This document shows positions 12,919 to 16,523 of a stretch of DNA of 64,000 nt, piece by piece. The notes below the pieces were generated by a model. It worked only from the letters and a program-made list of their open reading frames with translations. It did not search any database and was not told the origin of the DNA. Numbering within the stretch: position 1 is the stretch's first letter; each line of letters begins with the position of its first letter. The stretch lies in sequence record MW584180.1. One strand, 5' to 3'. This stretch comes from Mycobacterium phage prophiGD15-1. Position numbers and translations under genes: made by a program.

Positions 12919-13212
12919 TTGAGTGCTGAACCGCTGCAATGGGACCACAACCCAGATATTCGCGTCCCAAAGAATGGGTGCCGCGCCGAAGTTGACGGCG
13001 GTGCTTACATTCTGTTCAAGTACGGCGCTAGTTCGTGGCAGGTGCTTTTCAGCACTGGGTGGCATATACCCGATGAGGTCTATCTCGGCGACAGCGAATC
13101 AGACGCACTAGCCGCAGCAGAAGCTCACCATATCGCCATTAGGCAGAGAACGATCTACCGTCGAACGGGCAGGAGTGACGATGCCGCAGCGGATTCAGCG
13201 GAAGCGCACTAG
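12919..13212 (+). CDS. hypothetical protein
   Basis: 97-aa ORF. Confidence 0.35.
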   Translation: MSAEPLQWDHNPDIRVPKNGCRAEVDGGAYILFKYGASSWQVLFSTGWHIPDEVYLGDSESDALAAAEAHHIAIRQRTIYRRTGRSDDAAADSAEAH

Positions 13213-13549
13213 GGGTTGGCGAATGCCCGAGGGTGCTATCTACGTCGGGCGACCGAGCCAATGGGGCAACCCGTTTCGACCTGTTCTCGTCGGTGGCGAG
13301 TGGCTCATAGAGGATGACAACGGCGTCCAGTACGACGGGTTCGGGAGCAAGGTAAGCGCTATCGGTCGGTGCGTTGCGCTCTACCGGTCGCTCGATATGA
13401 CGTTCATGACAGACGCAGACCTAGACGAGTTCGTCGCGCCGCTACGGGGCCACGATCTCGCCTGCTGGTGCTCTCTCGATTCCCCTTGTCATGCAGACGT
13501 GCTGCTTGAACTCGCTAACGATCCACCGTCGAACGGAGAAGCTTTGTGA
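13175..13549 (+). CDS. DUF4326-domain protein
   Basis: N-terminal IQRKRTRGWRMPEGAIYVGRPSQWGNPF is the hallmark of DUF4326 found in many actinophages. Confidence 0.5.
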   Translation: MTMPQRIQRKRTRGWRMPEGAIYVGRPSQWGNPFRPVLVGGEWLIEDDNGVQYDGFGSKVSAIGRCVALYRSLDMTFMTDADLDEFVAPLRGHDLACWCSLDSPCHADVLLELANDPPSNGEAL

Positions 13550-13688: not shown

Positions 13689-14366
13689 GTGTCCGTCTCC
13701 GACAGCTTCTTTCTCGATAAAGGCTCCCAACACAAGCTCCGTGAAGAGTTGGCCAGCATCCCCCGCATGATCGGGGAGCTGTCCGTCACCCTCACCCGCC
13801 AGGCTCGCATCCAGAGGCCAGGGTTGAGTATGTCCCGAAGGCCCAAGCCTGAGTCTCAGGTCCCCATCCATATCGGGGCACACAACGCCGCTGACGTACT
13901 GCACAACTGCCTAGGTACGTGGGTGAGGCTGGTATGCGAACAACGAGCGATCGTGTGGGATAAGGGCAACGACATCATCACGCTGGCCAAGTGGCTGCGA
14001 GTCAACATGATCGCCCTAGCCCTCACTGAAGGTTCAGAAGAAGCGTACGAGGACATCAAAGCCGCTATCGATGACTGCTGGCGACAGATAGACATCCCCG
14101 CCGACGATGACATTGTGATCGACCGAGGACGAGTACATGAAGCGAACAAACACATCGTCACCGCCGACACCATCGAACCTATCGCCCGCCGGATAGGGGA
14201 GATGGGAAAGAAGCTGAATGCGCAGCGGGTGCACTCGCTTACCCGTGGTGGGCATCTGCGTCCAGTCTCTAGCGACCCGGACACGGGTAAGAAGTTCTAC
14301 CGACTGGGGGATGTGCTGCACGCGCACAACAACTGCGAGAAACGAGACCGAAAGAAGGGCGCATGA
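13689..14366 (+). CDS. hypothetical protein (225 aa)
   Basis: GTG-start ORF. Confidence 0.45.
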   Translation: MSVSDSFFLDKGSQHKLREELASIPRMIGELSVTLTRQARIQRPGLSMSRRPKPESQVPIHIGAHNAADVLHNCLGTWVRLVCEQRAIVWDKGNDIITLAKWLRVNMIALALTEGSEEAYEDIKAAIDDCWRQIDIPADDDIVIDRGRVHEANKHIVTADTIEPIARRIGEMGKKLNAQRVHSLTRGGHLRPVSSDPDTGKKFYRLGDVLHAHNNCEKRDRKKGA

Positions 14367-14563
14367 GCGACGGACGCGGCATGTACATGAAGTACCGAGT
14401 TGAGCGGATGGACGGCAAGGATATGGGGCCATGTTTCATCCTTGAATACAAGAAGGATCGCCACGCGCGGGTGGCACTTGCGGCGTATGCCGACGCGTGC
14501 GCCGAGGACAATCCTGGACTAGCCCAAGACCTGCGGTGGACGCTAGAGGAGCTGGAGCGGTGA
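14363..14563 (+). CDS. hypothetical protein
   Basis: ATGA-coupled. Confidence 0.35.
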   Translation: MSDGRGMYMKYRVERMDGKDMGPCFILEYKKDRHARVALAAYADACAEDNPGLAQDLRWTLEELER

Positions 14564-14709
14564 GGGTCGGGACCTGTCCGAAGTGTAAGCACTTGGAAGG
14601 TCGACACATCCAGTCCACGTACTTCGATGAAGAGACGTGGACTGGCCGATTCGTGTACGCCAGGTGCGATTGTGGCTGCACCCACTACGTCGTAGTGGAG
14701 CCGGTCTAG
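14560..14709 (+). CDS. zinc-ribbon miniprotein
   Basis: CPKC ... CDCGC motifs. Confidence 0.35.
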   Translation: MRVGTCPKCKHLEGRHIQSTYFDEETWTGRFVYARCDCGCTHYVVVEPV

Positions 14710-14858
14710 TGTCGGCCCTCGACTGTGAGGGGAGTGACCTAGATCCTGGTTGGTGCTGCACCCATAGATGCGATTTCAGGGACCCTAGGCATCCGCACTG
14801 CTGGCAGAACTGTGACGAAGAAGATTGCGCCGCCCCTGAGTGTGATTGGGTTGAGTAG
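14709..14858 (+). CDS. Cys-rich miniprotein
   Basis: CC.H.C...HC...C...C...C pattern. Confidence 0.3.
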   Translation: MSALDCEGSDLDPGWCCTHRCDFRDPRHPHCWQNCDEEDCAAPECDWVE

Positions 14859-14859
14859 T

Positions 14860-15139
14860 TCACGCTGGTCGCACATACTGCGCAGGCCAAGGTATCTCAC
14901 GCATCTTCCACGCCTGCGTAGGGTTGGCCGCAGTGACCCAAACGATAGGCATATCGCGTCCGGGAACTACCCGAGTGGTAGTTAGACACTCAACTTCACC
15001 ACCGGTTGCGGTGGTTACGTAGACACGCATTCTAGCTTCAATACCCATACGTCTAGCGTCGGTCTTGCCAAAAGATCTGTAAAGAAAAATCTATGCGACA
15101 CCGCGTTATGGCAGTGCCTTATGGCAAGCCGCAAAGGGA
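14860..15139. promoter_or_regulatory. lower-GC intergenic region with direct CTTATGGCA repeats and a strong RBS; probable promoter/operator region upstream of the toxin-antitoxin moron
   Basis: AT-rich stretch ...aaaagatctgtaaagaaaaatctatg...ttatggcagtgccttatggcaag; 62-aa antisense ORF here judged unlikely to be coding. Confidence 0.3.
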
Positions 15140-15400
15140 GTGAAACTGATGAACGTATGGATAGTCTCTGCGCATCGGTCCTGGGGCGACAGGATTGAAT
15201 ACCACGGACACAGGGGGGATACCCACCGCTGGATGGGCTGGACGCGACCCATACCCAAGGTGGGGGAAGTTATTGAAACTGAATTGAAGTCCGGACGGGC
15301 GGCCCGCTTTCGGATAGTTGAGGTTGAGCGCGGGTACGGCACGGATGATATGTGGTGGGCCACAACCTCGGACGCGCCCATTTATGGAGCGACGACGTAA
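15140..15400 (+). CDS. hypothetical protein
   Basis: ATG with AAAGGGAG RBS; 86 aa. Confidence 0.4.
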   Translation: MKLMNVWIVSAHRSWGDRIEYHGHRGDTHRWMGWTRPIPKVGEVIETELKSGRAARFRIVEVERGYGTDDMWWATTSDAPIYGATT

Positions 15401-15446
15401 CTGCCTCCACCTTGCATAAGTATATCGGTTCTGATATATTAATGAG

Positions 15447-15779
15447 GTGACCGACGAAAAGCCTCTCCGCTGGATAGGTACCTCACTTGAGGACCTACGG
15501 GACTTCCCCGAAGCGGCACGGCAGGACGCCGGTTACCAACTGGATAGGGTTCAGCACGGCCTAGAGCCCCACGACTGGAAGCCAATGCCAACAGTCGGCA
15601 AGGGCTGCCGCGAGATACGCGTACGCACCGAAGACGGCGCGTACCGTGTGTTCTACGTAGCCACCCTTGGGGATGTGGTGTTCGTACTGCACAGCTTCGT
15701 CAAGAAGTCACAGAAGACTTCCCAGCAAGACATCAACACCGGTAAGGCTCGATACAAGAAAGCGCAGGAGGAACTATGA
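15447..15779 (+). CDS. higB: HigB/RelE-family (Gp49-like) toxin
   Basis: pattern KPL.W.G.S..DL..FP...R...G..L..VQ.G..P.D.KPM...G.G..E.R.....G.YRV.YV......VLH.F.KK.QKT matches Gp49-like/HigB toxins; upstream of HTH antitoxin with ATGA overlap. Confidence 0.6.
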   Translation: MTDEKPLRWIGTSLEDLRDFPEAARQDAGYQLDRVQHGLEPHDWKPMPTVGKGCREIRVRTEDGAYRVFYVATLGDVVFVLHSFVKKSQKTSQQDINTGKARYKKAQEEL

Positions 15780-16027
15780 GCGTATGGGACGACATCGCCG
15801 ACACCCCGCGCGAAGCGGAGAACCTTCGCGTGCGGTCTGAGCTGATGATGGCAATCGAAAAGAAGATCAACGAGCGCGAATGGACCCAGGTCCAGGCCGC
15901 CGAAGCACTCGGACTGACCCAGCCTCGGGTGTCGGATCTGCTGCGCGGCAAGATCTCCAAGTTCTCCTTGGATGCTCTCGTGGACATCGCTTCCGGGTTG
16001 GATGTGCACGTGAAGGTGTGCGTCTGA
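15776..16027 (+). CDS. higA: HigA-like XRE-HTH antitoxin
   Basis: QVQAAEALGLTQPRVSDLLRGKISKFSLDALVDIA is a typical HigA HTH; toxin-first gene order typical of HigBA. Confidence 0.6.
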   Translation: MSVWDDIADTPREAENLRVRSELMMAIEKKINEREWTQVQAAEALGLTQPRVSDLLRGKISKFSLDALVDIASGLDVHVKVCV

Positions 16028-16122
16028 TTGCGACACGCCGACCAGGGGATATACCCCTTAACCGCTGTCAAGTAGTAAACTGCGCATAGGCGCGACTTAC
16101 ACCCATTCTTTTAAACCCCCAT

Positions 16123-16157
16123 CGACATTTGTTCGGTGGGGGTTTTTCTATGCCCAA
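16123..16157 (+). terminator. rho-independent terminator (AACCCCC-loop-GGGGGTT + TTTTT)
   Basis: seen in sequence immediately downstream of higA. Confidence 0.6.
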
Positions 16158-16181
16158 ACGGAGGTTCCCTTATGCCTCTGT

Positions 16182-16322
16182 CTCGTGTCCGCTGCTGCAT
16201 CCCCTGTGGCCGTATCCGCTACGCCCCCTGCTCTGCAGGGTGTCGAGTAGATCCCGAGAACGACCCAACAAGCTGGACAGAACAGGTGCCGCCGAGCGAT
16301 GAAGCTGAGTAAGGAAGCGCGC
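16182..16322 (+). CDS. zinc-ribbon miniprotein (46 aa)
   Basis: CC.PCGRIRY..C..GC; GGAGG RBS. Confidence 0.35.
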
Positions 16323-16523
16323 AATACCGTCGCCGACTGCATCAGTAAGGGCATCCACCTGACGCTGGACGTTCAGTGCGATGGCGAGCCGATGGGCGGC
16401 TGGTGCGATAAGTGCGAGAAACCGTCGATGGTCGAAGTGCAACTGCGTGGCATCTCCACTGACGCCGTGTACGACCTCGGACCCGCCGTCGTATGTGCAA
16501 ACCATGAGGCTGGCGATGATTGA
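16299..16523 (+). CDS. Cys-rich hypothetical protein
   Basis: 74-aa ORF, CDGEPMGGWCDKCEK. Confidence 0.35.
   Translation: MKLSKEARNTVADCISKGIHLTLDVQCDGEPMGGWCDKCEKPSMVEVQLRGISTDAVYDLGPAVVCANHEAGDD

Follow-up and report, generated by a model that had tools for sequence, protein, structure and literature searches.

A probable type II toxin-antitoxin operon of the Gp49-type HigBA kind with a leaderless toxin gene in the Mycobacterium prophage prophiGD15-1

The window analysed here comprises 64,000 nt of the prophage prophiGD15-1 (sequence record MW584180.1), and all coordinates refer to it. In its early-gene region, two small plus-strand genes that share a 4-nt ATGA overlap are, as best explained and in our judgement quite probably, a type II toxin-antitoxin operon in reverse (toxin-first) order of the Tad-Ata or Gp49-type HigBA kind. 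The promoter of this pair fires in the lysogen, both genes are heavily occupied by ribosomes and detected as peptides, and in M. abscessus the mRNA that encodes the toxin is leaderless. The pair is ordinary among its relatives, apart from how unusually well its promoter layout is conserved. The existence of the pair, its annotation, its lysogenic transcription and translation and its leaderless start are already in the literature. Beyond the searchable literature go only two points of modest interest, a promoter-operator-leaderless layout that recurs across the family and a genomic slot in which toxin-antitoxin cassettes are swapped. The features of the operon (transcription start site, TSS; helix-turn-helix, HTH) are as follows.

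15412-15417, plus strand: -35 element TTGCAT, 17 nt upstream of the -10 element and covered by the promoter string published for the mapped TSS
15421-15438, plus strand: putative operator, inverted repeat TATATCGG-tt-CTGATATA (7/8 complementary), overlapping the -10 element; read from the sequence
15432-15440, plus strand: extended -10 element TGaTATATT with the hexamer TATATT at 15435-15440; 6 nt separate this TANNNT from the start codon
15447, plus strand: primary TSS, the first base of the toxin GTG (PMC4974804, Dataset S1)
15447-15779, plus strand: toxin gene (MAB_1762; gp58 of prophiGD11-1), GTG-initiated, 110 aa, Gp49-type HigB/Tad of the RelE/ParE superfamily
15655, plus strand: internal TSS within the toxin gene (MAB_1763 TSS 1776609, read depth 92), giving an antitoxin-only transcript with a 121-nt leader
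15766-15771, plus strand: Shine-Dalgarno sequence AGGAGG of the antitoxin, 4 nt before its ATG and within the 3' end of the toxin gene
15776-16027, plus strand: antitoxin gene (MAB_1763; gp59), ATG-initiated, 83 aa, XRE-type HTH protein, HTH_37/COG5606-like Ata/HigA
16113-16147, plus strand: intrinsic terminator with 13-nt arms (92% complementary) and a 7-nt loop, followed by TTTTT

Both proteins are assigned to their families by profile searches. The toxin matches Pfam Gp49 (PF05973) over profile positions 1-90 of 90 (E 1.7e-24, 86.1 bits, cut-off 23.9), and the antitoxin matches HTH_37 (PF13744; E 9.8e-24, 83.4 bits, cut-off 27). Both genes also fall into the corresponding phage families of PHROGs, the toxin into phrog_2523 (E 1.4e-37). 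With 28.3 bits against NCBIfam TIGR02683 (cut-off 62.85) the toxin lies outside that equivalog, and its score against ParE (PF05016), the gyrase poison, stays below the cut-off (18.1 bits, cut-off 23). The classical HigB_toxin family (PF05015, the type of Proteus vulgaris Rts1) was absent from the Pfam hits of the toxin at E up to 0.1, and 'HigB-like' therefore holds for this protein in the Gp49 sense only. For the antitoxin, the nearest sequence of solved structure is 2a6c (E 7e-15). The 83-aa protein ends with its HTH and has no C-terminal chaperone-addiction extension, and the antitoxin gene is not followed by a gene for a SecB-like chaperone; the terminator comes next and then a 46-aa Cys-rich open reading frame (ORF) without Pfam hit. 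A preliminary description of this DNA, made from its letters alone, had proposed a Gp49-like RelE/HigB toxin at 15447-15779 and an ATGA-coupled, HigA-like XRE-HTH antitoxin at 15776-16027. Both proposals stand. For the toxin, hidden Markov models, predicted fold, catalytic residues and synteny agree; for the antitoxin, the ORF positions are exact and PF13744 scores above threshold. Assignment of the toxin to a non-toxin family by profile search had been named as the outcome that would speak against the proposal, and the search returned a toxin family, PF05973, above its gathering threshold.

Homologues of the toxin were collected and 55 of them aligned, and its structure was predicted with AF2 (AlphaFold) and compared to the PDB with Foldseek. 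The model (mean pLDDT 90.7, pTM 0.82) has the RelE-like beta-alpha-alpha-beta4-alpha topology with an antiparallel sheet and a long C-terminal helix (strands at residues 7-9, 44-46, 54-60, 66-74 and 77-86; helices at 13-18, 22-36 and 93-109). Its best match in the PDB is M. tuberculosis HigB1 on the ribosome (7nbu_Y, TM 0.71), which was also found in its crystal structure (7awk); V. cholerae HigB2 (5ja8, 8a0x) and S. pneumoniae HigB (6af4) are further top matches, and structures of ParE2 and RelE rank under these HigB proteins. Profile and fold searches were required for this result, as a single-sequence search of the PDB with the toxin came back nearly empty (best E 0.22, HigB 6af3). A profile search aligns the C-terminal half of the toxin to HigB1, for which residue roles have been published (PMC9098466), and places E66, R68, R77, F93, K95, Q98 and K99 of HigB1 at E56, R58, R67, F84, K86, Q89 and K90 of the toxin. 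E56, R58, R67, F84 and K86 are invariant in the 55 homologues, and K90 lies outside the invariant or nearly invariant columns of that alignment. From these positions we infer that K86 is the equivalent of the catalytic K95 of HigB1. By analogy with the characterised systems, it appears reasonably secure that the toxin is a ribosome-dependent mRNase and that it is neutralised by an autorepressing HTH antitoxin.

Expression from the lysogen had been considered possible in the preliminary description, with lysogen RNA-seq proposed as a check, and data of this kind were already published and are positive. In the MabA1 lysogens GD22, GD17 and GD43A the pair is strongly transcribed, unlike the flanking phage genes (Dedrick et al. 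2021, PMC8092301); the prophages of these three strains are 100% identical to the window at the pair. The same study counted at least nine toxin-antitoxin systems in nineteen M. abscessus prophages, mostly within early lytic genes, and a defence role of the present pair is only 'implicated' by its authors. For the type strain ATCC 19977, the genes are listed as MAB_1762 (1776401-1776733, 'Phage-related protein') and MAB_1763 (1776730-1776981) (Miranda-CasoLuengo et al. 2016, PMC4974804). In reads per kilobase per million (RPKM), the toxin reaches 96 in RNA-seq and 1177 in Ribo-seq with 2 peptides, and the antitoxin ~84 and 1658 with 1 peptide. The upstream genes MAB_1759-1761 show 13-16 RPKM in RNA-seq and 0.6-3.2 RPKM in Ribo-seq, and the downstream genes MAB_1764 and MAB_1765 1.8 and 0.9 RPKM in RNA-seq and 0 and 0.3 RPKM in Ribo-seq, all without peptides (PMC4974804). 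The pair thus has by far the highest ribosome occupancy of its region during ordinary growth. The ratio of Ribo-seq to RNA-seq in the same table is ~12 for the toxin and ~20 for the antitoxin, with ~0.9 for dnaN; small-ORF bias, very efficient translation and stalled ribosomes are candidate causes of the high values.

The transcription start was mapped in the same study. The toxin start predicted from the prophage coordinates, 1,776,401 in ATCC 19977, coincides with the listed start of MAB_1762, and the primary TSS of this gene lies at the same base (1776401, read depth 978, 5' untranslated region of length 0; PMC4974804). The published promoter string of MAB_1762 is identical to window positions 15397-15448, and promoter and palindrome are both contained in the 46-nt spacer before the toxin (15401-15446), in which no Shine-Dalgarno-like motif was found. 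Upstream of the internal TSS at 15655 lies a further TANNNT hexamer (TACCGT, 15642-15647). At the other end of the operon, the terminator stem is formed by 16113-16125 and 16133-16145 (core C16116-G16142) with TTTTT at 16143-16147. With a free energy of -21.3 kcal/mol (z = -4.2) it folds better than every one of 200 shuffled sequences; across it RNA-seq drops from 84-96 RPKM in the pair to 1.8 RPKM in the next gene. A scan with consensus promoter and terminator models recovered neither the promoter nor the terminator of the pair. This negative result was set aside in favour of reading, folding and the published TSS data; the scanner probably missed the terminator because the A/U extension of the stem uses up the T tract. 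The canonical hairpin terminator of the preliminary description is hence real, with its true position about 10 nt further to the left than the 16123-16157 given there. The description of the pair as a self-contained moron also agrees with these data, namely with its own TSS mapped to the toxin start codon, its own terminator and the fall of RNA in the next gene.

Among the relatives of the pair, this layout recurs. A scan of one genome per species gave 241 relatives, of which 80 were kept and examined; the scan returned no M. abscessus, and closer relatives were taken from the phage collection and a protein database. The 80 toxins are 50-62% identical to the present one and come almost entirely from Proteobacteria (among them the cultivable Extensimonas vulgaris DSM 100911, Legionella maceachernii, Collimonas sp. 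OK242 and Cupriavidus sp. YAF13), with one from Gordonia, and an antitoxin homologue (48-63% identity) lies directly 3' of the toxin in every one of them. With the upstream regions anchored at the toxin start codon, 61 of the 80 relatives have a TANNNT hexamer separated from that codon by 5-7 nt, a spacing seen for 3% of the ATG triplets of these loci overall, and 58 of 65 loci have a TTG 16-17 nt ahead of the hexamer. In most of the 80, the -10 element is embedded in a consensus inverted repeat TATATCC-N4-GGATATA; a Shine-Dalgarno-like motif upstream of the toxin was found in none of them. The six bases between the -10 element and the start codon vary in sequence and are constant in number. 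Altogether the layout, with a sigma-70-type promoter, its -10 element in the operator and no Shine-Dalgarno sequence, is kept in about three quarters of the 80 relatives, and the promoter-operator cassette is also found in non-phage chromosomal settings of many bacteria. The Gordonia locus carries the same palindrome in the perfect form TTATATCGGTTCCGATATAA. An actinobacterial contig (L086, Logan ERR363426) encodes an 86%-identical pair in which the palindrome is kept near letter for letter, together with the 6-nt spacing from the -10 element to the GTG. Automatic detection of antitoxin starts and Shine-Dalgarno sequences in the relatives was unreliable (35 loci resolved) and no conclusion was drawn from it. 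On L086 (1-8333) the pair lies near a PhdYeFM/PIN pair and NTPase-like genes (AAA_28, with a faint nSTAND hit), a context that resembles an accessory or defence island and differs from that of the prophage.

The simplest reading suggested by these observations is that the mRNA of this subfamily is leaderless and repressed at an operator that overlaps the -10 element, with the TSS of M. abscessus as experimental anchor and the proteobacterial members predicted from their upstream sequences. Leaderless mRNAs are rare in Proteobacteria. Whether the leaderless start might be a defining, phylum-spanning feature of the Gp49/HTH_37 subfamily and not a mycobacterial quirk is a matter on which we are evenly divided. 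In a literature search, no published description of a family-wide leaderless layout was found. The conserved layout bears on an open question, since it is not understood how toxin-first operons set the ratio of toxin to antitoxin (Armalyte et al. 2018, PMC5906591). If the transcripts truly start at the ATG, reverse-order operons would have a built-in setting of the toxin:antitoxin translation ratio, and toxin synthesis could be coupled to conditions that favour 70S or leaderless initiation. The idea that the leaderless start lowers toxin translation is unsupported in M. abscessus (toxin 1177, antitoxin 1658 RPKM) and is kept as a hypothesis for Proteobacteria only.

Several characterised systems resemble the pair. 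The Tad-Ata (RelE-COG5606) family was first described on plasmid pAMI2, prophage N15 (whose gp49 gave the Pfam name) and SXT (Makarova 2009, PMC2701414). Its members (Paracoccus aminophilus pAMI2, N15 gp49/gp48, SXT) likewise combine a DUF891/Gp49 toxin with a small Xre/Cro-type HTH antitoxin, likewise have the toxin gene first and likewise reside on mobile elements including prophages, a likeness at the level of protein families and gene order. Tad-Ata pairs were tested as stabilisers of plasmids or integrative and conjugative elements, whereas the prophiGD15-1 pair resides in an integrated mycobacterial prophage and is known from sequence and expression. HigB1 of M. tuberculosis (Rv1955), part of a toxin-antitoxin-chaperone (TAC) system, is the best structural match at 20% identity. 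Common to both proteins are a long C-terminal helix, a typical trait of Gp49-like toxins, and the seven pocket-residue equivalents, which suggests, by analogy, that the toxin is likely to act in A-site mRNA cleavage on the ribosome. Unlike TAC, the pair has neither the SecB-like chaperone gene nor the chaperone-addiction tail; it also differs from HigB1 in D63 at the position of N73, and the sequence match is marginal (E 0.06). V. cholerae HigB2-HigA2 and S. pneumoniae HigBA have the same toxin fold (Foldseek probability 1.00, TM 0.54-0.62), the same order of toxin and antitoxin and an HTH antitoxin, which in their case binds the operator (8a0x). The toxin shares a KxxQKT motif with S. pneumoniae HigB; identity to V. 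cholerae HigB2 and S. pneumoniae HigB is only 14-19%, and a PDB search with the antitoxin, an HTH_37 protein, detected no match to the HigA2 sequence. HigBA2 of A. baumannii combines a Gp49-domain toxin with reverse gene order, as here, and features autorepression by the antitoxin and the complex as well as a plasmid-stabilising role (PMC5906591). Its predicted internal antitoxin promoter is inactive, in contrast to the experimentally mapped internal TSS of the prophage pair.

Taken together, the pair is best explained as an autonomously transcribed accessory cassette in the early-gene region of a MabA1 prophage. The toxin would enter the ribosomal A site and cleave mRNA as M. tuberculosis HigB1 does, which is proposed on account of fold and conserved residues. 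The antitoxin would be translated from the strong AGGAGG site coupled to the toxin stop, with an extra antitoxin transcript presumably supplied by the weak internal promoter at 15655. Family knowledge leads us to assume that the antitoxin neutralises the toxin and, together with the conserved palindrome, that it acts as a repressor of the promoter when bound to the inverted repeat 15421-15438 over the -10 element. Transcription stops at the hairpin 16113-16147.

The genomic setting of the pair is a slot with exchangeable content. The 1.5 kb around the pair are 100% identical in eleven M. abscessus phage and prophage records (27-1 at 99.9%), namely prophiGD11-1, 17-2, 20-1, 21-2, 22-1, 43A-1 and 57-2, phiGD20-1, 22-1 and 23-1, and 27-1, in which GenBank labels the genes 'toxin' or 'RelE-like toxin' and 'antitoxin' or 'HTH DNA binding domain protein'. 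All eleven belong to cluster MabA1, as does the prophage of type strain ATCC 19977. In five other MabA records, homology to the query is limited to ~150 bp, made up of the 3' side of the terminator and the Cys-rich ORF, and the slot lies immediately upstream of that ORF. The right boundary and the alternative cassettes are as follows.

16172-16312, plus strand: conserved 46-aa Cys-rich ORF, right boundary of the variable slot and outside the pair
prophiGD102-1 (cluster MabA1): HicA/HicB
prophiGD91-2 (cluster MabA3): HicA/HicB on the opposite strand, plus an HNH gene
prophiGD02-2 and prophiGD90-1 (cluster MabA2): BrnT-like pair
CCUG48898T-2 (cluster MabA1): unannotated pair with the same sizes as the BrnT-like pair

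HicA and HicB were confirmed by Pfam; the label BrnT-like is a GenBank annotation only. With the Gp49/HTH_37 pair, HicAB, the reversed HicAB with HNH and the BrnT-like pair, the slot holds four toxin-antitoxin arrangements (comparison with L002, L003, L004 and L085). The alternative cassettes each have their own terminator-like hairpin, as the present pair does, and encode protein families unrelated to it. In comparison with prophiGD102-1 the non-homologous segment spans ~14331-16137 between flanks of 92% and 96% identical DNA, and the left boundary of the slot in that prophage is a phrog_908 gene. The Cys-rich ORF is near-identical in all 16 MabA records (92-97% DNA identity in MabA prophages with other pairs, homology beginning at 16138-16160), and each of these 16 records carries a toxin-antitoxin cassette in the slot, eleven of them the Gp49/HTH_37 pair. 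This suggests selection for having some pair in this place. Such a pattern is typical of accessory or defence hotspots, and a swap slot agrees with the mosaic-module picture of mycobacteriophage genomes. The preliminary description had noted that the pair interrupts the run of coupled early genes, and indeed overlaps of 1-4 nt prevail among the flanking genes, and non-coding gaps border the pair.

What the pair does for the lysogen is the least certain step. Our best guess, a tentative one, is an abortive-infection-type defence against other phages that would benefit both lysogen and prophage; the preliminary description had likewise proposed a defence (abortive infection) or stabilisation module. 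Some points weigh against the explanation given here. A literature search found no experiment on toxicity, neutralisation, DNA binding or phage defence for this pair, and PADLOC-DB 2.0 has no model for it, the matches returned being weak and partial (C-terminus of NsnC, E 1e-4; generic HTH models, E >1e-3). Solved HigB proteins resemble the toxin only weakly in sequence (E 0.06-0.2 in single-sequence and profile searches). The alanine mutant of HigB1 N73 loses much of its toxicity (PMC9098466), and the equivalent D63 of the toxin stands in a variable column; the equivalent of HigB1 K58 is ambiguous, as K58 lies beyond the aligned stretch, with the invariant K45 as a possible counterpart. The M. 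tuberculosis paralogues HigB2 and HigB3, which belong to the same Pfam family, lack K58, N73, F93 and K99 and show no toxicity in E. coli or in M. smegmatis, a host reported to lack an endogenous HigA (PMC9098466). Moreover, the ribosome density of the toxin in M. abscessus is ~70% of that of the antitoxin (1:1.4), a very high value for growing cells that suffer no apparent harm. The non-toxic paralogues, the positions of N73 and K58 and the dense translation would fit a toxin that is attenuated or catalytically dead, with the pair as an autoregulated DNA-binding module or a harmless selfish passenger that causes no growth arrest. We consider this unlikely, as F84 and K90 are retained, in contrast to HigB2 and HigB3 without equivalents of F93 and K99, and so are E56, R58, R67, K86 and Q89. 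Five pocket residues do not vary among the 55 homologues, which span several phyla, and this speaks for purifying selection at the active site; moreover, the co-inheritance of the antitoxin in 80/80 loci is as expected of a dangerous toxin. High translation of the toxin is also normal in type II pairs with a slight antitoxin excess.

An active toxin could also serve mainly in addiction, that is in the post-segregational killing of cells from which the prophage has excised, and not primarily in phage defence. The founding members tad-ata (pAMI2), gp49/gp48 (of the linear prophage N15) and the SXT pair are described as stabilisers (Dziewit 2007, as cited in PMC2701414), HigBA2 of A. baumannii lends stability to an unstable plasmid (PMC5906591), spontaneous excision with release of virions occurs in MabA1 prophages (PMC9934374), and the pair is constitutively expressed in the lysogen. 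The replacement of the cassette by unrelated types in near-identical prophages points to diversifying selection, which is more defence-like, although addiction is also compatible with it, and on balance addiction as the main role, the next most likely one after defence, seems somewhat doubtful to us. A function in the lytic programme of the phage itself, such as a shutdown of host translation after induction with incidental transcription in the lysogen, would be in line with the position of the pair among early lytic genes on the same strand and with the active leaderless promoters of downstream early genes in ATCC 19977 cultures. The pair, however, is served by a promoter of its own, which carries an operator-like palindrome, and ends at its own terminator, it is the most ribosome-occupied part of the region in ordinary growth while its immediate neighbours are silent, near-identical phages dispense with it and carry other pairs, and the same promoter-operator cassette resides in non-phage chromosomes of many bacteria; we therefore regard a lytic function as very improbable. 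Of the prophages in clinical M. abscessus, those of MabA1 count among the commonest, and resistance that lacks an explanation limits phage therapy, which makes a prophage pair with constitutive expression a reasonable candidate to consider. The unrelated cassettes swapped in near-identical prophages constitute a natural set of isogenic comparisons.

Two features next to the pair were considered as parts of the system.

15149-15400, plus strand: upstream ORF gp57, 83 aa, phrog_8812, annotated start ATG 15149, co-inherited with the pair in MabA1 phages
16088-16147, plus strand: possible ~60-nt terminated transcript, uncertain (TSS 1777042, read depth 540.5), starting 25 nt before the hairpin

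For gp57 there were no Pfam, NCBIfam or PADLOC hits, and gp57 and the low-GC gap were rejected as parts of the system, having no family, defence or synteny tie to it; the upstream genes in L086 and Gordonia are different ones. The preliminary description had let the element begin at 15140, and the stretch 15140-15400 proves to be outside the pair and to be occupied by this separate ORF. It had also placed a low-GC region with direct repeats before the pair. Region (GC ~0.51-0.52 versus ~0.58-0.60) and repeats (15103-15126 and 14983/15020) exist, but they lie upstream of gp57 and not directly before the toxin. The direct repeat GCGTTATGGCA / GCCTTATGGCA (15103-15126, 13-nt spacing) and an inverted TTGCCA at 15066-15071 (region 15064-15128, plus strand) sit just before the Shine-Dalgarno sequence and ATG of gp57 and may be a regulator binding site. 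Further upstream, in the unannotated gap 14710-15148, a 62-aa ORF on the minus strand (14860-15048) is identical to MAB_4999c, a newly called coding sequence with 56 RPKM in RNA-seq and 61 RPKM in Ribo-seq in ATCC 19977 (PMC4974804). It has no annotation in the GenBank prophage records and may be a second lysogen-expressed gene just upstream of the pair.

The TSS at 16088 was assigned by the authors of PMC4974804 to MAB_1764, which is silent at 1.8 RPKM. Folding of the segment 16088-16147 yields mainly the terminator hairpin. The idea of a small RNA conserved with the cassette was rejected, since conservation of the segment does not extend to the 86%-identical locus L086. An Rfam search of 14400-16400 gave as its sole hit a chance match to a snoRNA (E 0.96). 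Just upstream of this TSS lies an imperfect GGGGATATACCCC hairpin with an operator-like half-site GGATATA (16045-16057).

The annotated GTG start of the Cys-rich ORF (MPLSRVRCCIPCGRIRYAPCSAGC...) at 16136 overlaps the terminator. Its product probably has 46 aa because conservation across phages begins at GGAGG and the ATG at 16172, and 51%-identical relatives occur in ~190 M. smegmatis phages.

Elsewhere in the window the motif TAGACACCGC recurs, with 12 hits at up to one mismatch compared with 4.2 expected (among them 12432, 17034, 17642, 18189 and 18501 on the plus strand and 56993 and 62637 on the minus strand). It supplies the -35 region in promoters built as TAGACACCGC...(G/T)A(T/A)AAT-6 nt-ATG, which in ATCC 19977 give leaderless transcripts with TSS depths of 165-1887 (MAB_1757, 1766, 1768 and 1770). 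Part of the early region is therefore transcribed in log-phase cultures. The early genes also include a DUF4326 protein (PF14216, E 8e-20) at 13175-13549 on the plus strand.

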